A stretch of 64,000 nt of DNA, from the sequence record PX104378.1. One strand, given 5' to 3'. The position numbers were made by a program, and so were the translations under genes. Under the pieces are notes generated by a model, which was not told the DNA's origin, made no database searches, and was given only the letters and a program-made list of their open reading frames with translations. Source of the stretch: a phage. Shown here one piece after another: positions 1,056 through 43,537 of the stretch; the stretch's first letter is position 1, and each line of letters starts with the position of its first letter.

Positions 1056-1323
1056 ATTGTTTCAGGTCTTCTAAAAGTTCATCCACTGCTTGTTTCAGCA
1101 CATGACGTAGCGTAAAATAATAGCTTTCATCAAATTCTATTTCCGCGCGAGGAATAGAGCGAAACTTACACTTAACGGTAGTATCAGTGAGTCGCTTTTC
1201 GACCATCATCCGAACTTCTTCATGCTCTTTAGAATACCATACATCAACGGAGATCCCCTTGCGTCGAGCAAACATAGGCAATGCCGCATTAAATTCCATT
1301 ACCTTTTGTGCAAGTGTTTTCAT
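1006..1323 (-). CDS. hypothetical protein (105 aa; start uncertain)
   Basis: Minus-strand ORF; overlaps downstream ORF by 50 nt so true start may be internal. Confidence 0.4.
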   Translation of the reverse strand: MKTLAQKVMEFNAALPMFARRKGISVDVWYSKEHEEVRMMVEKRLTDTTVKCKFRSIPRAEIEFDESYYFTLRHVLKQAVDELLEDLKQYEIERGTYYEYDYGRG

Positions 1324-1583
1324 CGTACAGACTCCATAGATCCACGGGCAATTACATTCTGGGTAATATCAGCAACCTTACGGGATATGATGTTTGTTAG
1401 CCCCTCTTTGGTGATATTTTCACGATCAAATGGGATTTCGTCATGAGTCCATAAACCATAGTTAGACCGAAATGATAGCATATACTGACCATCTCGCACA
1501 ACCTCAAATACATGGATCTTAGTGAATTTCGATAAACCTTCGTTGATTTCTTTCAGTGCATTAGTAATCATAACAACCTCCAA
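1320..1583 (-). CDS. hypothetical protein (87 aa)
   Basis: Minus-strand ORF directly downstream of a PeSL-type promoter (1597-1625) and a GGAGG-like RBS. Confidence 0.5.
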   Translation of the reverse strand: MEVVMITNALKEINEGLSKFTKIHVFEVVRDGQYMLSFRSNYGLWTHDEIPFDRENITKEGLTNIISRKVADITQNVIARGSMESVR

Positions 1584-1596
1584 TCAATTTTTAGAG

Positions 1597-1625
1597 AGTA
1601 TAACGGGGATTTCTCCCCGCGTCAA
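1597..1625 (-). promoter_or_regulatory. PeSL-type early promoter (TTGACG-N17-TATACT), spacer forms hairpin
   Basis: Minus strand reads TTGACGCGGGGAGAAATCCCCGTTATACT; spacer GGGGAGAAATCCCC is palindromic. Confidence 0.6.
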
Positions 1626-2660
1626 CTAACTTTTTGCGCTATTTACTTCGGCTAAAAGTTCATCAGAAATACGCTTGACCGCCGCAAGTTCATCCGGTTC
1701 TAGGTTTTGTTCTTCCAGATATTCGTAAACCATTTGAATAGTGCTTTTAACCTCAATAACACCAGTTTCCTGTGATGCGCTACTCTCCAGCTTATGGACC
1801 ACTTTTAGCTTGTGTACAACGGCCTCTAACGCGCTTTCTAACTTAGTTAACCCATTATCAGCGACCGTTGCGATAAGACGCACACTAAGCCCCTTATAGC
1901 GTTCTACATCGATTTTATCATCTGACGGGTAAGTGATACGCACATGATAAGTTTTGTCATTCTGGATAAACTCTTTTTTGTGTGTATCGGTATCGAATAC
2001 CCAAAAACCACGCGGATCGTTTTCGTCACCAGCCGTTAGTGTGTATGGTGTACCGATATACGTTACGTTACCGCCATCGCTGATAGTATGAAAGTGACCA
2101 GAAAACACTTCACGATATTTCTTGAGGAAGTCCGCGCTATAACCTTCGGATTTTAGCCCTTTATAGAAATAGTAACCAGACAATTCCCAATGGCCTACAC
2201 AATATTCGCTGAATGAGTTTTGAATAAACTCTAAAATCTCTGATTTATTGTCATCACAAAACCACGGGAACAGATCAAATGATACACCATCAAAGGTGAC
2301 TGTTTCCGGTTTATCAATAACCTTAATGCAATCATACTGGCTTAACACTTCACGCGGTGCGTTAGGCTGGATCTTGTTTCGTTTAAACATATCATGATTC
2401 CCGACCGTGGTATAACAAGTAATACCAGCCTCTTCCAGTAGCGGGATAATTTTCGTTCTATTAAAACGCATAGTTGCATGTGTGATTGCTTTTCGGCAAT
2501 CAAACCAGTCCCCTGTCTGAATCCATGCCTTAATATTATGTTTTTTTGAATAATCGACTGCCTTTTTAATAGTATCAAGAATATACTCATGTATCCACGG
2601 ATCATCGTTGCCGATACCAGTATGCAGATCACCTAAAAGCAAAATTTTCATATTATACAT
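1626..2660 (-). CDS. 47: gp47 recombination endonuclease subunit (Mre11/SbcD-like phosphoesterase)
   Basis: Translation (KILLLGDLHTG..GDWFD..GNHD..GHFH..GDENDPRGFW) aligns along its length with remembered T4 gp47; AGGAGA RBS upstream of ATG. Confidence 0.9.
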   Translation of the reverse strand: MYNMKILLLGDLHTGIGNDDPWIHEYILDTIKKAVDYSKKHNIKAWIQTGDWFDCRKAITHATMRFNRTKIIPLLEEAGITCYTTVGNHDMFKRNKIQPNAPREVLSQYDCIKVIDKPETVTFDGVSFDLFPWFCDDNKSEILEFIQNSFSEYCVGHWELSGYYFYKGLKSEGYSADFLKKYREVFSGHFHTISDGGNVTYIGTPYTLTAGDENDPRGFWVFDTDTHKKEFIQNDKTYHVRITYPSDDKIDVERYKGLSVRLIATVADNGLTKLESALEAVVHKLKVVHKLESSASQETGVIEVKSTIQMVYEYLEEQNLEPDELAAVKRISDELLAEVNSAKS

Positions 2661-2666
2661 AATCTC

Positions 2667-3221
2667 CTAAAAATTTTTAACACCATATTCACCAAAATAA
2701 AGATCAACCGCTTTGTCATAAGCTCTAGCCGCATCTTCTTCGTTGACATAATACCCAAGAGATATTAGTTTATCATTATTTCGTATTCTTGCAACCCATT
2801 TCTTCGTATGTTTATGCCAGCTAACTCCTTTATACTTGCTTGCTTTATTCTTGTACTTTCCAACGTTACAAGCATTTTTCTTTGCGTCGGACTCTCTAAG
2901 ATTGCGCGGTGCGTTGTTTAAAGGATTTCGGTCTATATGATCTATAATTTCTGGTTGTGTTCCATGCTCAAGAAACCATACAACACGATGTACATATGGC
3001 TTTAAAACCCTCCCATTATCCATAACGATTGCAATTTGGAGATGATCCTGACTTTTAAAAGTTTTTACTTTATCTCCTGCCTTATAAAACTTTCCTTCGT
3101 AATTCTTTCCTCCGGCTCGGCTATTCTTTAAATGATAAAGAATACCCTCATCGTCATGTCTATATCTTTCTCTTATAATTCGTTGCGTTTCTTCATCCCA
3201 CAATTTGGAACGTCTACTCAT
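2667..3221 (-). CDS. HNH homing endonuclease with C-terminal AP2-type DNA-binding domain
   Basis: HNH motif HIDRNPLNNAPRNLRE and AP2-like segment YKGVSWHKHTKKWVARIR..LGYY..EEDAARAYDKA; GAGAGGAAGA RBS. Confidence 0.75.
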   Translation of the reverse strand: MSRRSKLWDEETQRIIRERYRHDDEGILYHLKNSRAGGKNYEGKFYKAGDKVKTFKSQDHLQIAIVMDNGRVLKPYVHRVVWFLEHGTQPEIIDHIDRNPLNNAPRNLRESDAKKNACNVGKYKNKASKYKGVSWHKHTKKWVARIRNNDKLISLGYYVNEEDAARAYDKAVDLYFGEYGVKNF

Positions 3222-3312
3222 AGTCTCTTCCTCTCTTCGTTTTCGATGCTCTCACTATATCACAGAAAAATAAAAAGGGAAACCCCTTTCAGAGTCTCCC
3301 TTATAAAAGCCA

Positions 3313-3600
3313 TTACAGCATACTTAATACCGTTTGCCGTGTACTAACCCACATAGCAGAAAGCAGTTCTGGCGTGTGTGGCTGTTTGTAGATATCACGC
3401 AATTTTCCGATAGCGTAGATATACGCATCACGGTTATCATCGATGATAGCTTGTTCAGCCCACCGCTTAAGGCGTGCAATCTCTCGCGAGTTCTTACGCA
3501 AGATCTTTTCCGCTTTCTTAGCGGCTTTCGCCTCTAGTTCTGCTTGTACTTTGTCTACTTCATTCACTACAATCTTGTCATGTTGTTCATCGTAAGTCAT
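3313..3600 (-). CDS. hypothetical protein (95 aa)
   Basis: Minus-strand ORF, tiles with neighbours. Confidence 0.45.
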   Translation of the reverse strand: MTYDEQHDKIVVNEVDKVQAELEAKAAKKAEKILRKNSREIARLKRWAEQAIIDDNRDAYIYAIGKLRDIYKQPHTPELLSAMWVSTRQTVLSML

Positions 3601-3601
3601 A

Positions 3602-3835
3602 TTATTTTCCTTCTGGGATATAGTCGATGATTAAAGAAAACTCATCTTCTGATACATTATAGCTATGTGAGATTGTACCCGTCAAGACCTCAAGATCCGG
3701 TGATTTGATATTGCACGGATCGATAATCACCGGAACGCCGCAATCTCTCAAAAATAATTTGGCGAAATACGGCACAAGGTCAGTTTCAAACTCTGCTTCT
3801 TCCAGCAAACGGGAAATGTTAATTTTCAATCTCAT
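3602..3835 (-). CDS. hypothetical protein (77 aa)
   Basis: Minus-strand ORF immediately downstream of gp55, small overlap. Confidence 0.45.
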
Positions 3836-4392: not shown

Positions 4393-5862
4393 CTATTCCC
4401 CATTGCCATTATACTTTCTTTGCTTAGTTATCCACACTCTAACCATCTCTACTGATTCACCGTCAGACGGATCAAGAGTTTTTCCTTTTTTCTTCATGCG
4501 GTACTTAAATCCGTTAAATCTTGCATTCTCTTGCTCGTTAAAGTCGAACATCTTTTTAAATGATTTTCGCCCTTTACGCTCACCACATTCTAGCGGAATC
4601 ATTCGGTCTGTTATTACATTGGCATTAGGTAGAAACGTTTTTAGATAATCTACCAACGCCCAATCAGGAACATATAGATTAACATTCTCCTTGCTCTCGT
4701 TGTCTCTCAGGTTACAACGCAAACATAATTGAAATGCTGGTTCCAGATAATCAGACACATGACGCGCTTTCAAAAACTCATTTGTCGGGAGATCACAACT
4801 ATTAGCAAGACCTTTTAAAATATCAATCTCCCATCGTTGAGGGTTAAAGCTGAACATCACCGCAACATTTTTATGATGAATGTAAGAGTTAAGACCATAA
4901 GACCCGTAAGGTATCCGCTCACCAATACCATTTGTACACGCTTCACGGTCCCGATTCACGGTATAAATGAAGTCATCACCACATTCATTTTTAACCATAT
5001 CAACAAGACGTTCAAAGGTATTGTTTGTTTCTGACTGGTGACGCGACCAGCGTTCGGAGTCCGTCATAAGGATGATATTAACTCTATCTGTATTTTTATA
5101 CTCTTTGAAATATAGTCTGGATTCTAGCGCACTCGGAACAAAATCGCAATTTGCATAGTATCGTAGATACTTCCCGCTATATGTATCAAAGAGATTTGCA
5201 CATGCTATCGTAACCTTTTTAAAGTCTCCCCACGTACCGTGTTTGTTATCGTTCAAGAAAACAATTTTCGACCCATTCTTCCGGTGTCCTTCGTTATGTT
5301 TTACCATAACGTTGATTTTCTTCTCTAATAACGCCTCATAAAGCCCTCTAAGAGAAGAATCGATCATATCAGTACCATCCTTTGCACTTTCTATCTTTTC
5401 TTTGATAGCGGCCTTCTCAGAGTCTTTTAGAACTAGGTTCTGTAGGCATTCCGATTCGTCGGCGATTGGTTCGCAATGCTTCGTGATAAGTTCAAGATTA
5501 GACTTAAACGGATACTCATTAAATTCAACCAGTTGAGGAACTTCATCAATGTAAAGAGCATATTCACTAAACATTTTTGAACGCTCCATATTAGATAACG
5601 CTGTATGTGTGATGAATATCACATCAGCACCATCTTTAACTGATTGCATTATCGACGCTTGCACTGTCTTAAGGCTTCTTAGTCTGGTGCTATCAATCAA
5701 GACAGCACGACCGCCCATTCTTTTAAACTTATTGTAAGATTGTTCACTTAAAACACGAGATGGCGAAGCAATAACCGCTTTTTCTTTTGTCTCTAGGACG
5801 TGGGAAAGTATAGCATCAGTTTTCCCCGCCGCTGGCAATGCGATTAATGTTTCAATCTTCAT
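4393..5862 (-). CDS. putative P-loop NTPase (489 aa), function unknown
   Basis: N-terminal Walker A-like ALPAAGKTDA and Walker B-like YIDEVPQ; occupies the position where T4 has a-gt, to which it shows no similarity. Confidence 0.6.
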   Translation of the reverse strand: MKIETLIALPAAGKTDAILSHVLETKEKAVIASPSRVLSEQSYNKFKRMGGRAVLIDSTRLRSLKTVQASIMQSVKDGADVIFITHTALSNMERSKMFSEYALYIDEVPQLVEFNEYPFKSNLELITKHCEPIADESECLQNLVLKDSEKAAIKEKIESAKDGTDMIDSSLRGLYEALLEKKINVMVKHNEGHRKNGSKIVFLNDNKHGTWGDFKKVTIACANLFDTYSGKYLRYYANCDFVPSALESRLYFKEYKNTDRVNIILMTDSERWSRHQSETNNTFERLVDMVKNECGDDFIYTVNRDREACTNGIGERIPYGSYGLNSYIHHKNVAVMFSFNPQRWEIDILKGLANSCDLPTNEFLKARHVSDYLEPAFQLCLRCNLRDNESKENVNLYVPDWALVDYLKTFLPNANVITDRMIPLECGERKGRKSFKKMFDFNEQENARFNGFKYRMKKKGKTLDPSDGESVEMVRVWITKQRKYNGNGE

Positions 5863-7089: not shown

Positions 7090-7917
7090 ACCTCGCTCTT
7101 TACCAATCAAAAATTCAACTTCACGACGTTTAATGTCTTCTTGAAGGTCTTTAATCTTCTGGCGATCTTGCATGATTTCATCCATCTTGTCAAGTGCCGC
7201 AATGAAATCATCGAAACGTTCAAAGGTTTTACCTTCATTTGCTTCGCCAAATTTAACCATTGTCAGGCCATAACGACTACTAAAAAGACGCTTCAACTGT
7301 CCAACGACCTTAGAATCATCGTTCACCTTTTCTTCTGGTTCTTTCACGGTTTCAACTTCACGAAAATATTTTCGTTCAAGCCCAACAAACCACACAGCAT
7401 CAACATCATCATCAACACCCGCCGAATGAGGATTAAATGTTCCACAAACATTATCATTATTGATGTCGATCATAGTAACGAAACCAACAGAATCAACGGA
7501 AGATACCGTAAAAGTCTCATCTCCTATCCAATCAGCAATTTTACGGTTGATATTAGAACAGTGAGAAAACGTCACTTTTGCGTTTACATCCTTCCAAATA
7601 TAAGTTTTACCAACTTCCCATTTAGGAGGAACTTCTTCAACTTCACGAAAGAATTTTATATCAAATGGACTAAACAAATATGTTGACGTCCAAATGTCTT
7701 TTCCTGTAGCCGTTTTCGCCGTATGATAAACACCGTCTAGCTCTATTACATTAATCCAACCATCACCTTCGTTCTCGATGATGGTAAATGGCTTGTCACC
7801 AATAGCTGCACTGATATCGCTGTTAAGTGGAGAAAGAACACCTTCTCCGTTAGTAATAAACTCAGTTTTAGCGTTTTCATCTTTCCAAGTGTAAGTTTTA
7901 CCAATTTCCCATTTCAT
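7084..7917 (-). CDS. hypothetical protein, paralog family A (two repeat domains)
   Basis: MKWEIGKTYTWKD at N-terminus and second internal copy PPKWEVGKTYIWKD. Confidence 0.6.
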   Translation of the reverse strand: MKWEIGKTYTWKDENAKTEFITNGEGVLSPLNSDISAAIGDKPFTIIENEGDGWINVIELDGVYHTAKTATGKDIWTSTYLFSPFDIKFFREVEEVPPKWEVGKTYIWKDVNAKVTFSHCSNINRKIADWIGDETFTVSSVDSVGFVTMIDINNDNVCGTFNPHSAGVDDDVDAVWFVGLERKYFREVETVKEPEEKVNDDSKVVGQLKRLFSSRYGLTMVKFGEANEGKTFERFDDFIAALDKMDEIMQDRQKIKDLQEDIKRREVEFLIGKERGW

Positions 7918-21702: not shown

Positions 21703-22488
21703 TTACACGCGAGCACCGTAGATCGTGCCTACTTTATCCCAGCGTGGAGCATTACCAGTAACAGCCTTACCAGCCGCACCACCAGAGTGAACAGTTCCTC
21801 CAGTACCACCTTGAATATATGAAGATTTGCCAGCAGATCCCAAATCTCCACCATTTCCTCCATAGTGAACCCCAGAAACAGTGCCTTTACCTGGGGCAGA
21901 AATTGTACCAGCAGATGCTGCCGCTGCGCCGCCTCCTGCCTTACCAGCCGCACCAAATGGACGGCCTCCGCCGCCGCCAAATATCATATCCATTTGAGGG
22001 AAAGGATGGTATCTAGCACCAGCACCGCCACCACCACCACCACCAATAATACCATTATTGTTTATTCTTAAACGAGTTCCAATTCCGTTATTTATTGCAT
22101 TTCCTCCTGCTCCGCCAGCAGAGTTACTTCCGCCATTTCCTCCCCGACCTAATACATGAACACCAGAGTTAATAATGAGTGTTACATATTCGTTTGTTAG
22201 TGAGCTAGGGAAATCAAGACAAGGAACGCCAGTAGAATGGGAAACAATATTACCGGTGATAGTAATTACTACCGGAGTAGATCCTTGTGCTTTCATCCAG
22301 TTAATAAGAGTGTCTTTATTGTAAGAGTTACTAGCGCCAATGCTATAATGAATCTCTTTAGAACGTCCGACCATCGCTGACATATACGCCGGACGACCTA
22401 AGCGTACAGCTTGCATTGCGGCGCTCATCCACCGTTGACCAGTCTCAGCAACAGCCGATGATCCGACCCAACCTGCTTTAATTGCCAT
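21703..22488 (-). CDS. gp38-like glycine-rich receptor-binding adhesin homolog (T2/S16 type)
   Basis: N-terminus MAIKAGWVGSSAVAETGQRWMSAAMQAVRLG resembles the gp38 attachment domain; C-terminal half has glycine-rich motifs GRGGNGGSNS, GGGGGGGAG, GGGGGRPFGAAG, GGNGG separated by short variable segments; ends ..WDKVGTIYGARV. Confidence 0.7.
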   Translation of the reverse strand: MAIKAGWVGSSAVAETGQRWMSAAMQAVRLGRPAYMSAMVGRSKEIHYSIGASNSYNKDTLINWMKAQGSTPVVITITGNIVSHSTGVPCLDFPSSLTNEYVTLIINSGVHVLGRGGNGGSNSAGGAGGNAINNGIGTRLRINNNGIIGGGGGGGAGARYHPFPQMDMIFGGGGGRPFGAAGKAGGGAAAASAGTISAPGKGTVSGVHYGGNGGDLGSAGKSSYIQGGTGGTVHSGGAAGKAVTGNAPRWDKVGTIYGARV

Positions 22489-24125: not shown

Positions 24126-26273
24126 TTATTCACGTCCATTTGTATAGTAGTGTTTGAATCGCCCATAGCCAGTTTCAATAGACATATCCTTCTGGCGGAC
24201 AATCGCCCAATAACCATTACACGAATCTTGAAGATACAAATCCTTACCTTTTAGGAACTCATTAAAGATAGTGATTTGCCAGTCATAGTAGACAGAATCT
24301 TCAAGTTTATCCATCCAACCATGCGGATCTTCCATCAATTCGACAAGCTCATCAATTACCCAATACGGACACGGACTAAATCGGCCTTTGCTAAACTCGT
24401 TAAACATAGTAACAATTTTAACTTCCGGTCTAGGTTCATCCGGTCGCACAGGACGTTTATTAACTACAACCTGAACATATTTTGTATACCCGACAATCTC
24501 GCCAGGATCTAGTTCATCGTTGCTGTTTTTATCAGCAAATGCAACAAATCGATAAACACCAGCATCCTCTAGCGTAACGTTTGCTTTACGGTAAATCGGA
24601 CTTCTTGAGTCCTCCATGTCCATTTTAACACCGTTTTTACTAAACTCATAAGTCGGAACATATGAGGCTGGCGGTTTTAGCATGGTTGCTTCTAGCGTTA
24701 GGGTATCACCTTCCGTAACCTGTACCGGATGAGGACCGTCAAACTCCATATTCGGCACTACTTCAACATGATAGGTCGAACGACCAGCAATATCAAAATC
24801 AGTATGTGCACTAAATGGATCTTTACTAGGACTATCACGATATTCATGCGCCCAGATGCCGTTATGGTCTCGGTCCGCAGAGTCGGTGATCTTATATTCC
24901 TTAGTACCTAGCGGAAGTTCCGTTACTTTAACGTCGTTTTTGGTGATAACCAAAGTTCGCGTTTGTTCGGGATCATCGCTAGCTGGCGGTTCAGGATCTA
25001 TGATCTTGAGAACAATCGGTTCACCCACTTCAATATTACGATAATCATACTCTTTATCATAAATATCAAGCATACGACGATCATAAAATAATGGGCGACC
25101 GTTAGGAATCACCTGTTCACCCGCTGGATTGGCAGGAGCAACCAACAATTGAAGCGCAACGCTGTTATCATATTGCAATCCAGATAGCGTTATCCGGTCA
25201 TAACCCTCATCGCCATATTTTTTACTTTGTAGTTTCTTACCGCCAAGCATCCACGTAAAGTAAACATTGTTAGTAAGCATACCATAATGACGATTCCATG
25301 AGCTATCGGCTTGCATCACTGGCATATCAAGGTTTACTGTAGACCCAGAAGGATAACGAAAATCAATAGCACTAAAATCACGGCTAAAAAATTCGTTTTC
25401 TTTTACGTTAACCGTGAATTGATGACGTTGCCCGTCAATATATTCAGTTCCAGCACCAGGTCCATTAACAACCTTATACGCACGAACAAAAGCAACATAA
25501 ACTCCGGCATCTGACGGTTGAGCATGTTTAGTTACATACAAAGTCTTATCTTTAGACTCATAAACCAAACTACCATCATTGCGCTCTAGTCGATATCGGA
25601 CAATAGTATATTCCGCCTGATTTGGTGCATCATCCTCTACGGTAAAATAAGCAGGTGCATATTTTTGTACGTTGAATACTTCCTTATTTTCAGTGATGTT
25701 TGCATAGAAAGGATATACAAATTTAACCTCACCATGTTCATCACTCAATTCCATTTTATATGTACCGGAAAATTCAGGCCAAGCGAATTTTGCAATTTTA
25801 AATTCACGATGGTCTAACCCCAGATCACCATCAACGGAATCAACCAAACCATCATTATAATAAAGGTCAACCGAAATATTAGGCTGGATATGACTACGAA
25901 AAACAATCTTTGCCTTGATTTCATCACCAATATTAAAAGACGTCGGCGGGTATACATGTTCCACATATGGATTATCAAAAAGTTCAAAGGTGAAGTTTTC
26001 CGTGCCGATATCTACGGATTCGCCAGAAAGATTTTCATCATCTTGAGCAAAACCACGAACATTAACAGACCAACCTGTTTTATCTTCCTCTTTAACAGAT
26101 TTTAGCGGAAAGGATGGACCATCTGTCATTGTGATCAACTTATCATTCTTTTTCCACAAATAACCTTTTCGTCTTTTCTCTGGGTCTTCCGACTCAGCAA
26201 CAATAGAACATTCAAAAGTATGAGGAAGCCAAATTTGTGAGTTAATTGTAGTGTTTTTAATTTCTGCTGGCAT
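24126..26273 (-). CDS. large hypothetical protein (~715 aa) with Ig-like repeat signatures
   Basis: Recurrent D-x-G-x-Y motifs (SDAGVYVAFVRAYKV, EDAGVYRFVAFADK) typical of Ig-like beta-sandwich domains; start at ATG 26273 after AGGGGGA RBS; no signal peptide. Confidence 0.6.
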   Translation of the reverse strand: MPAEIKNTTINSQIWLPHTFECSIVAESEDPEKRRKGYLWKKNDKLITMTDGPSFPLKSVKEEDKTGWSVNVRGFAQDDENLSGESVDIGTENFTFELFDNPYVEHVYPPTSFNIGDEIKAKIVFRSHIQPNISVDLYYNDGLVDSVDGDLGLDHREFKIAKFAWPEFSGTYKMELSDEHGEVKFVYPFYANITENKEVFNVQKYAPAYFTVEDDAPNQAEYTIVRYRLERNDGSLVYESKDKTLYVTKHAQPSDAGVYVAFVRAYKVVNGPGAGTEYIDGQRHQFTVNVKENEFFSRDFSAIDFRYPSGSTVNLDMPVMQADSSWNRHYGMLTNNVYFTWMLGGKKLQSKKYGDEGYDRITLSGLQYDNSVALQLLVAPANPAGEQVIPNGRPLFYDRRMLDIYDKEYDYRNIEVGEPIVLKIIDPEPPASDDPEQTRTLVITKNDVKVTELPLGTKEYKITDSADRDHNGIWAHEYRDSPSKDPFSAHTDFDIAGRSTYHVEVVPNMEFDGPHPVQVTEGDTLTLEATMLKPPASYVPTYEFSKNGVKMDMEDSRSPIYRKANVTLEDAGVYRFVAFADKNSNDELDPGEIVGYTKYVQVVVNKRPVRPDEPRPEVKIVTMFNEFSKGRFSPCPYWVIDELVELMEDPHGWMDKLEDSVYYDWQITIFNEFLKGKDLYLQDSCNGYWAIVRQKDMSIETGYGRFKHYYTNGRE

Positions 26274-26293
26274 GTATCCCCCTGTGACTGACA

Positions 26294-26692
26294 TTAAGCC
26301 AGTCGAGTGAGTTTATAAATTGTTTTAAAGCATAGAACTTTTATATCGTCTAAAACGCTCTGTAACGAGCTATCAACATCATTATAAATCTCACTAGCCA
26401 TTTGCGTTAACTCTTGCAAATAGGCAATTTCGCTAATCTCCTTGCGGACGACCAACGTTGGCTGATAACGACCAGTGATCCCAATATTGGTTTCAGTGAA
26501 ATTATCAACCAATTCTTGCATTTCAAGATAGAACTCTTCGAGAGCCTTATGTTTTGCATAAGATCCCGGACCAGTTACCCCAAAATGCGCAGAATGCATA
26601 TAAGTAACACTCATCAGACATTCACCGATAAAGCGGTCAACTTTATTAGCTTTCCCCTCTTCGGACGTCTTTCGAAAATCACTGAATTTCAT
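26294..26692 (-). CDS. hypothetical protein (132 aa)
   Basis: Start at ATG 26692 after GGAGAATCGAGAAC RBS. Confidence 0.4.
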   Translation of the reverse strand: MKFSDFRKTSEEGKANKVDRFIGECLMSVTYMHSAHFGVTGPGSYAKHKALEEFYLEMQELVDNFTETNIGITGRYQPTLVVRKEISEIAYLQELTQMASEIYNDVDSSLQSVLDDIKVLCFKTIYKLTRLA

Positions 26693-42368: not shown

Positions 42369-42842
42369 CTATTTGTTAAGCCCTTTAAAGCCAAATACTT
42401 TCTTTAATGCATGTTCGGTTATGATCTTAAACTCCATGTTATGCTTTTGGCACAATTTCACGGCAGCTAACCATTTTTCAGTATTTTTTGTGTACGTCCA
42501 TACTTCATGCATATACCGTTGCTTTGTCTTCGCGGTCATTCTTTTTGGCTTTTCTGGTGGTCTTGTCTCTTTAGCTGGTTTAACTTCCCATAAATGCTCC
42601 TTACCATCATCAAACTTAACGTAAAAATCCATAAAGTATCTGTGTCTTTTTCCGTCTGTTGATGACTCATAAGGAATTACTACGGTCTCTGATCCCCATT
42701 TTGCAACTCTAGGATTGCGGTCTAAAAATTTCATTATATGTAATTCCCAACTTGACCTGTAGACGATTTTTTTCAGGTCGCCTTTATACTTCTCCGGGTT
42801 TTCAGGTCTATATTTACCCTTATATGTGTTGCAATTACCCAT
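42369..42842 (-). CDS. 4: gp4 head completion protein
   Basis: KYKGDLKKIVYRSSWE..VVIPYESS..RHRYFMDFYVKF..LWEVKPAKETRPPEKPKRMT parallels T4 gp4. Confidence 0.85.
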   Translation of the reverse strand: MGNCNTYKGKYRPENPEKYKGDLKKIVYRSSWELHIMKFLDRNPRVAKWGSETVVIPYESSTDGKRHRYFMDFYVKFDDGKEHLWEVKPAKETRPPEKPKRMTAKTKQRYMHEVWTYTKNTEKWLAAVKLCQKHNMEFKIITEHALKKVFGFKGLNK

Positions 42843-43537
42843 TATACCACCTTCTTCTTGCAGTTGTCACCATGCCATCTAACATAATTTCCCTGATTGG
42901 CTGTTTTTCCACAATGAGGACAGGTGAAATACGGACGAGACTTTGACAATTCACTATATTTTTGTTTCATTTCTGGCGTGTTATGAATACGTTTCCATTT
43001 CTCTACGTTTTCTTGTGACAACTTTCTACCCTTACCCGCTTTAGAGATGTTGTCTCTCCATTCTTGTGTAATTTCTCTTGACGCAATATTTCTTTTATGT
43101 TCTTCTGTAAACACTCTACCTTTTAATGAAGCAGATAATTTCTGTCGATGTTCCTCAGATAATTTAATTCCTTTTCTCTTTCCTTTAGTTGCTTCTGATA
43201 TTCTGCGTCTAGTCTCTTCGGATCTTTTTCTTCCTGTATGAAATTTTCTTGAAGTCTCGACCGCAAGTTTTCTTACCCACTCAAATTGTTTATTGTTATA
43301 GTTGGTAGACCCCATCAATATTTTCGCCGCATGTACAATTCCGTGATGTGTTGGATGCATTTTTGCTAAAAGTTGATGAGCAACAAAATGTTCAGACCCC
43401 GTTAATTCAACTATATTTTCTGGACTATCATCGCCTCCCATACAACGAGGAATAATATGATGTTTTTCTTTATATCCGTCAAGCGTTCTATGCTTTGCGC
43501 GTTCAATTAATCGATCATAATGTTTTTGATAGTCCAT
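42842..43537 (-). CDS. HNH homing endonuclease (HNH + NUMOD-like repeats + C-terminal zinc finger)
   Basis: HNH signature EKHHIIPRCMGGDDSPENIVELTGSEH, basic repeat region, CPHCG..C tail; stop overlaps gp4 start (TAATG). Confidence 0.8.
   Translation of the reverse strand: MDYQKHYDRLIERAKHRTLDGYKEKHHIIPRCMGGDDSPENIVELTGSEHFVAHQLLAKMHPTHHGIVHAAKILMGSTNYNNKQFEWVRKLAVETSRKFHTGRKRSEETRRRISEATKGKRKGIKLSEEHRQKLSASLKGRVFTEEHKRNIASREITQEWRDNISKAGKGRKLSQENVEKWKRIHNTPEMKQKYSELSKSRPYFTCPHCGKTANQGNYVRWHGDNCKKKVV

Follow-up and report, generated by a model that had tools for sequence, protein, structure and literature searches.

A probable HNH-AP2 homing endonuclease gene inserted at the start codon of gene 47 in a Krischvirus genome

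The 64,000-nucleotide stretch of phage DNA analysed here (sequence record PX104378.1; hereafter the window) carries, at 2667..3221 on the minus strand, a gene that is very probably a free-standing HNH-AP2 homing endonuclease gene (HEG), spreading by intronless homing as a selfish insert of 570 bp placed directly before the gene 47 ATG. The window phage is a Krischvirus, that is, an RB49-like T4-type coliphage, with 98.2% identity to MIZ4 and 97.7% identity to RB49 over the first 6.2 kb. The gene itself is not new: it belongs to a known class, has been annotated and published before, and has been cited since 2004–2010. What is new here is a base-exact insertion junction, a HEG-linked haplotype of gene 47 that nominates a candidate target, and a diverged homologue in phage phiS at the same junctions. 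These new details are unsurprising but useful to experimentalists, and the remainder is tidy annotation. HNH-AP2 homing endonucleases are the class from which the plant AP2/ERF transcription factors have been proposed to derive.

The endonuclease gene and its protein

The open reading frame spans 2667..3221 (minus strand) and encodes 184 residues followed by a TAG stop. The protein is 100% identical to RB49p040 (RB49ORF040c, NP_891611.1) of phage RB49, where the gene occupies the same locus between the same neighbours. RefSeq describes RB49p040 as 'similar to HNH endonuclease; DNA-binding AP2 domain'. Nolan et al. 2006 placed RB49ORF040c, with its AP2 and HNH matches, among 'putative mobile DNA elements' and named RB49 and RB43 as carriers of HEGs of the AP2-HNH class (PMC1524935). 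Table 5 of Petrov et al. 2010 credits RB49 with one HNH-AP2 HEG and phi-1 with none (PMC2993671), and papers on plant AP2/ERF proteins, with reference to Magnani et al. 2004, point to RB49 as one source of AP2 homologues that occur within HNH endonucleases (PMC4237383). The literature searched yielded no experimental characterisation of RB49p040 or of another phage HNH-AP2 enzyme. With no characterised HNH-AP2 homing endonuclease in that literature, the RB49/Phi1 pair would be a convenient one for learning which DNA a nuclease-guiding AP2 domain recognises.

The preliminary description had read the protein as an HNH motif fused to an AP2-type DNA-binding domain and had proposed a profile search as a check on the AP2 part. 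Judged against the curated gathering scores of Pfam, both domain calls exceed their cut-offs. HNH_3 (PF13392), a nuclease domain of the His-Asn-Asn type, matches residues 76–117 (2871..2996, minus strand) with an E-value of 7.2e-12 and 45.2 bits (cut-off 24.8), and AP2 (PF00847) matches residues 128–171 (2709..2840, minus strand) with an E-value of 2.4e-10 and 41.0 bits against a cut-off of 33.3. Almost the entire protein (residues 8–183) is covered by PHROG 99 'HNH endonuclease' (E 2.5e-50). The motif HIDRNPLNNAPRNLRE corresponds to residues 95–110 (window 2892..2939).

Both halves of the protein can also be connected to solved structures. A family profile was built from seven homologues taken from phage loci, which are 43–50% identical to the window protein. 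Run against PDB sequences, it matched the plant AP2/ERF factors WRI1 (E 6e-18), TEM1, ERF096 and AtERF1 (1gcc/2gcc; E ~1e-6), and the AP2 domain of WRI1 (7wq5) was found in the same sequences by phmmer with the single window sequence (E 7.5e-10). YKGV (YRG-like) and AARAYD (RAYD) blocks are legible in the AP2 domain. An AlphaFold single-sequence model, of low confidence overall (mean pLDDT 39.9, 50–69 in the AP2 part), places strands at 133–136, 141–148 and 151–158 and a helix at 161–178.

The same profile matched I-HmuI (1U3E; E 4e-7), with profile positions 39–123 aligned to 1U3E residues 17–104. The match includes an N-terminal part of about residues 39–75 (3056..3107, minus strand), which resembles the region before the HNH motif in I-HmuI and whose coordinates are approximate, as profile positions are not exact residue numbers. 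Within the nuclease domain, D94-H95, N102-N103, N107 (of NLRE) and N116 align with the DH, NN, NLR and IN positions of I-HmuI, and D94, H95, N107 and N116 are invariant in 7/7 homologues. In I-HmuI, a nuclease of the His-Asn-Asn variant, the counterparts of these conserved residues are taken to act as general base, structural Asn and metal-binding Asn. By these alignments the window protein is I-HmuI-like through the nuclease core, with an AP2 domain C-terminal to the core, and this AP2 domain is likely the sequence-recognition module of the nuclease.

The gene had further been described as the second, unrelated HEG-like gene in the window, and this agrees with our data. A 231-residue open reading frame at 42842..43537 (minus strand), between gene 4 and gene 53, carries a different HNH motif (HHIIPR...N...H) together with a NUMOD3 repeat that Pfam matches at E 6.8e-07. 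The frame falls within about 0.7 kb that RB49 does not have (window 42724–43534 against ~115 bp in RB49) and is probably a mob-like free-standing HEG, the 'first' of the window. A tblastn search with the HNH-AP2 protein found only itself in the window and thus no paralogue; a weak match (E 3.1) lies inside nrdD and was dismissed as chance.

Several other features of the window deserve mention in their own right. A 722-residue open reading frame (24126..26294, minus strand) between the equivalents of RB49p084 and rI.-1 fills a segment of ~2.0 kb that RB49 lacks (24161–26182); its sole match is a sub-threshold one to Ig_3 (22.7 bits, cut-off 30). The 489-residue protein at 4393..5862 (minus strand) is the equivalent of RB49p044, conserved in Krischvirus, which matches PHROG 2467 'unknown function' (E 2.6e-174) and, marginally, a DEAD/DEAH helicase-type profile at its N-terminus (28.6 bits, cut-off 26). 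Lastly, the megablast alignment to RB49 breaks at 7318..7584 and 21783..22019, where lengths are similar and the region is otherwise 95–97% identical; these are locally diverged or replaced segments.

The insertion site and its occupancy among relatives

All genes at the locus lie on the minus strand and are transcribed in the order 55, a-gt.5, a-gt.4, HNH-AP2, 47, four small open reading frames and 46, which places the HNH-AP2 gene immediately upstream (5') of gene 47. The earlier placement downstream of gene 47 is true only in plus-strand coordinates and must be reversed for the direction of transcription. Gene 47 (1626..2651, minus strand), which encodes an SbcD/Mre11-like recombination nuclease subunit according to Pfam, PHROG and the RB49 annotation and is the presumed target, adjoins the HNH-AP2 gene, and gene 46 follows beyond gene 47 and the four small open reading frames, with only its first ~220 nt in the window. 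The upstream neighbour is a homologue of a-gt.4 (DUF2654; 3313..3600, minus strand; Pfam and RB49 annotation).

Alignment with HEG-less Krischvirus genomes delimits an insert of 570 bp (2652..3221). As the open reading frame takes up 555 bp of it, there is no space for an intron or ribozyme, and the gene is intergenic, outside any intron or intein. The junctions are base-exact relative to Phi1, with an ambiguity of the 4 nt CATA present at both ends. In the empty site of Phi1, the gene 47 ATG stands directly after GAGGAAGAGACT. This native ribosome-binding region of gene 47 (3222..3233, minus strand) is now located before the endonuclease ATG. Since the 570 bp are inserted between the ribosome-binding site and the start codon of gene 47, the endonuclease ATG takes over the old gene 47 ribosome-binding site.

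At its 3' end the insert supplies a substitute. There (2652..2669, minus strand) the TAG stop overlaps a new Shine-Dalgarno sequence, TAGGAGATTATGTATAAT, ahead of the conserved gene 47 ATG at 2649..2651. The insert also creates an alternative in-frame ATG for gene 47 at 2658..2660, 9 nt upstream of the conserved start (MYNMKILLLG versus MKILLLG), so that the distance from the new Shine-Dalgarno sequence is 3 nt for the first gene 47 ATG and 12 nt for the conserved start. Annotations use the longer form (1035 nt) in JK32 and MIZ4 and the shorter (1026 nt) in RB49 and all HEG-less phages. With these spacings the efficiency of gp47 translation may differ in HEG+ phages.

The HEG has no terminator of its own and its stop codon is separated from the gene 47 ATG by 15 bp; hence co-transcription with gene 47 can be presumed. 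The terminator-like hairpin that had been noted upstream of the gene is real: it follows a-gt.4 on the minus strand, reading from 3302 to 3271 (3271..3302), with a 12-bp stem and then a T-run, and it is annotated as a terminator in GEC-3S. However, it is conserved in HEG-less phages and therefore native to the a-gt.4/47 intergenic region, resident sequence and not part of the insert. A sigma-70 scan reported no site upstream of the HNH-AP2 ATG, and the T4-type late promoter TATAAATA is absent from 2400–3700. The consensus-like arrangement TTAAAA-17-TATAAT at 2680..2652 was rejected as a promoter of gene 47, as it abuts the gene 47 ATG, cannot serve it and probably arose by chance. By eye, a possible extended -10 element, TGATATAGT, can be seen between the hairpin and the ribosome-binding site; HEG-less phages have the same.

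Among Krischvirus records the site is mostly empty. The region is matched by 59 records, and the HEG occurs in 5 of these: RB49 (twice), MIZ4, MIZ5 and JK32, which are four distinct phages. In 53 records the HEG is absent with the same gap of ~570 bp, the matching span measuring 2028–2031 bp for a query of 2601 bp; counted as distinct phages, 48 of 53 have no gene at the site. The single remaining record, phiS, holds a diverged HNH-AP2 gene (PP449093.1 9027–9581; 1272..1826 of locus L003), which also encodes 184 residues, with 47% protein identity and the same two junctions; the span is similar in length and the DNA is different, being unalignable by megablast to the window HEG. Universal conservation at the site had been named as evidence against mobility, and what is found is five occupied records, 53 clean empty sites and one diverged homologue.

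Beyond this site, relatives of the HEG (43–50% identical) are located after gene 39 in JSE and between 34 and rnh in KFS-EC; phiS has one between genes 2 and 3. Others (45–47%) stand just downstream of gene 46 in RB16 (1492..2067 of L023) and in Klebsiella Slopekvirus phages such as Matisse (2567..3049 of L006). Such a placement beside varied conserved core genes is typical of free-standing HEGs. HNH-AP2 genes thus flank the 46/47 cluster on differing sides in different genera, and in phage CPRSB both the HNH-AP2 copy and gene 46 are split into several annotated coding sequences (L007). The RB49-type and phiS-type proteins score 154–155 bits against each other and paralogues score up to 150; that the two types are each other's closest relatives is only marginally supported. 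An IMG/VR scan for close relatives returned only one distant locus (42% identity, L019). In tblastn searches with both proteins, nothing at 60–95% identity was present in 50,697 phage records, so no candidate donor lineage emerged.

A linked haplotype in gene 47 and the case for homing

To the side of gene 47, the HEG is accompanied by a distinct haplotype. An alignment of ~3.2 kb compared the window with three HEG+ phages, with phiS and with ten phages that lack the HEG. In it, 13 fixed differences separate HEG+ from HEG-less genomes, all of them at 2543–2610 (minus strand), 40–108 bp inside gene 47 (codons 14–37). Elsewhere among the 2633 aligned flank columns, including the a-gt.4 side, there is none, and the 40 bp adjoining the insert are identical in all genomes. 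In the ten HEG-less genomes gene 47 codons 7–24 are essentially invariant. The RB49-type allele changes codons 14–15 from GGT GGC to GGC AAC (G15N) and codon 20 from GTG to ATA (V20I), with a further run of mostly synonymous changes in codons 27–37. In phiS, whose gene 47 flank has a substitution set of its own, codon 15 is independently changed from GGC to AAT, which also gives G15N, and codon 20 from GTG to GTA, which is synonymous.

The linkage between this haplotype and the HEG is perfect in the 59 records: a blastn search with the 117 bp at 2535–2651 gives identities of at least 99% for the 5 HEG+ records, as against 82–87% for the other 54. Left of ~2530, the HEG-less phages Phi1 and GoldenSnicker have the HEG+ haplotype, indicating recombination breakpoints nearby, and outside ~2300–2651 the HEG+ phages are not mutual nearest relatives. 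Between the window and RB49 there are 0 differences over 2442..3304 (863 bp), as compared with 28/1134 and 34/1280 (about 2.5%) in the adjoining segments. JK32 and MIZ4 share a second HEG allele, which differs at 8/570 positions. The window HEG is the RB49 element in another Krischvirus background. Taken together, these patterns suggest that the HEG and about 100–350 bp of gene 47 transfer as a unit between otherwise mosaic genomes. A linked flank haplotype and a zero-difference tract shared with RB49 constitute a strong mobility signature, the absence of which the preliminary description had named as part of its refuting condition, and the block at 2543–2610 is a candidate for both the target/immunity site and the minimal co-conversion tract.

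We therefore favour intronless homing, for which a general account and the T4 examples SegF, SegG and MobE are available (PMC2993671). In a mixed infection with a HEG-less relative, the enzyme would nick or cut the relative's allele close to the 5' end of gene 47. Repair by recombination, with the HEG+ genome as template, would then transfer the HEG together with neighbouring gene 47 sequence to the recipient, and the HEG+ genome would be spared because its own gene 47 carries the cluster of substitutions. The positions critical for immunity would most likely be codons 14–15, where a GC-rich GGTGGCG is removed, and codon 20. We infer the enzymatic activity, the cut position, the choice between nick and double-strand break and the time of HEG expression; since I-HmuI is a nicking enzyme, the break could be confined to one strand. 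The target is most probably located at codons ~13–21, a placement suggested by the alteration of codons 15 and 20 in both HEG lineages and by the loss of GGTGGCG. AP2 domains are reported to favour GC-rich DNA (PMC10448857). The linked substitutions could instead be passive hitch-hikers from a diverged donor and not immunity changes. Moreover, a homing cycle predicts some HEG-less genomes with the 'immune' haplotype, and none was seen, albeit among only 54 records.

More tentatively, the RB49-type and phiS-type HEGs might go back to a single ancient insertion event at the gene 47 ATG. Both would then recognise codons ~13–21, after phosphoesterase motif I, and their spread would have forced G15N and a change of codon 20, either V20I or synonymous. 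If so, the spread of a HEG would have reshaped a core Mre11-like nuclease whose end-processing homing itself needs.

The alternative that survives best concerns the position of the target. It is possible, if on balance unlikely, that the target spans the insertion point, i.e. the junction between the gene 47 ribosome-binding site and ATG, so that insertion alone immunises and the cluster at 2543–2610 is a co-converted remnant of a diverged donor. The exactly shared junctions of the two HEG lineages speak for this, and the identical 40 bp beside the insert could be part of a conserved target; in addition, the RB49-type flank states are only partly present in phiS. However, codons 15 and 20 are changed in both independent lineages within a stretch where the ten HEG-less genomes show essentially no variation, and linkage is perfect in 59 records although breakpoints are located only ~15–100 bp further left. 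Characterised free-standing phage HEGs also argue for a target inside gene 47: SegF, SegG and MobE cut within the adjacent gene, away from their insertion points.

It is improbable that the HEG is an inactive relic, once mobile but no longer cutting or moving and inherited vertically in a small RB49-like clade. Its carriers are indeed only four distinct phages, and its activity is deduced and not taken from experiment. Nevertheless, the open reading frame is intact, with an invariant D-H...N...N and a complete AP2 domain, and the HEG+ phages are not nearest relatives beyond the immediate flank. Such mosaic backgrounds, together with an 863-bp identical tract in genomes ~2.5% different, point to recent transfer and not to vertical descent.

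A domesticated function that mainly benefits the phage, be it nuclease attack on co-infecting competitors (marker exclusion) or AP2-type regulation of gene 47 expression, appears more improbable still. The HEG does precede the core recombination gene 47 and is presumably co-transcribed with it, plant AP2 domains serve as transcription factors, and co-option of HEG-derived domains is documented for other phage systems (PMC10448857). Against this, most relatives manage without any gene at the site (48 of 53 counted as distinct phages, 53 of 59 counted as records), the nuclease motif that a pure regulator would not need is intact, and the cutting of competitors is biochemically the same as homing and no separate mechanism.

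Least probable of all is an ancestral Krischvirus gene deleted independently in most lineages: the deeply diverged phiS homologue at the same junctions does indicate that the site was occupied long ago, but the 53 empty records share the same ~570-bp gap, with a clean junction and a functional ribosome-binding site and ATG in the loci read, a 4-nt CATA repeat alone would not guide such uniform deletions, the flank haplotype is perfectly linked to the HEG, and loss via recombination with an empty allele belongs to the normal HEG cycle and is no rival to it.

Comparison with known homing endonucleases and AP2 proteins

The window protein resembles I-HmuI of the Bacillus phage SPO1 (1U3E) through its nuclease core: the sequence before the HNH motif aligns, and so does the His-Asn-Asn motif. 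I-HmuI is an intron-encoded HNH homing endonuclease that nicks one strand, and its C-terminal part is unlike the AP2 domain of the window protein. The window HEG, in contrast, is free-standing, has its AP2 domain in the C-terminal part and encodes a putative nuclease.

With regard to genomic behaviour, a close parallel is provided by T4 SegF, SegG and MobE. These are small, sporadic open reading frames between conserved genes, which target the neighbouring gene and are inherited together with flanking markers (PMC2993671); the flank pattern in the window agrees with this. On the protein level, the Seg proteins differ in being GIY-YIG enzymes, whereas MobE belongs to a different HNH subfamily, carries a zinc finger and lacks an AP2 domain. 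Beyond the HNH motif there is no detectable sequence relationship, and homing has been demonstrated for SegF, SegG and MobE but is deduced for the window HEG.

The same two-domain architecture is shared by HNN-AP2 or HNH-AP2 genes of the Xanthomonas phages Xp10, OP1 and Xop411, of RB16, RB43 and Felix O1, of ICP1 ('IPA-HNH'), and of Trichodesmium and Tetrahymena. The window protein has the same boxes (HRxxWxL, DH, NLRE and N) that were described for the 'HNN-AP2' genes of Xanthomonas phages (PMC2248197), and the HNH-AP2 family is recognised as one of HEGs (PMC10448857). The other HNH-AP2 genes differ from the window HEG in their insertion sites. The ICP1 members are too diverged for Pfam HNH_3, whereas the window protein matches it clearly.

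Comparing the C-terminal domain with plant AP2/ERF factors (WRI1, TEM1, ERF096 and AtERF1) reveals a homologous DNA-binding domain, with profile E-values down to 6e-18. However, the plant proteins lack a nuclease domain and act as transcription factors, whereas the AP2 domain of the window protein presumably directs a nuclease.
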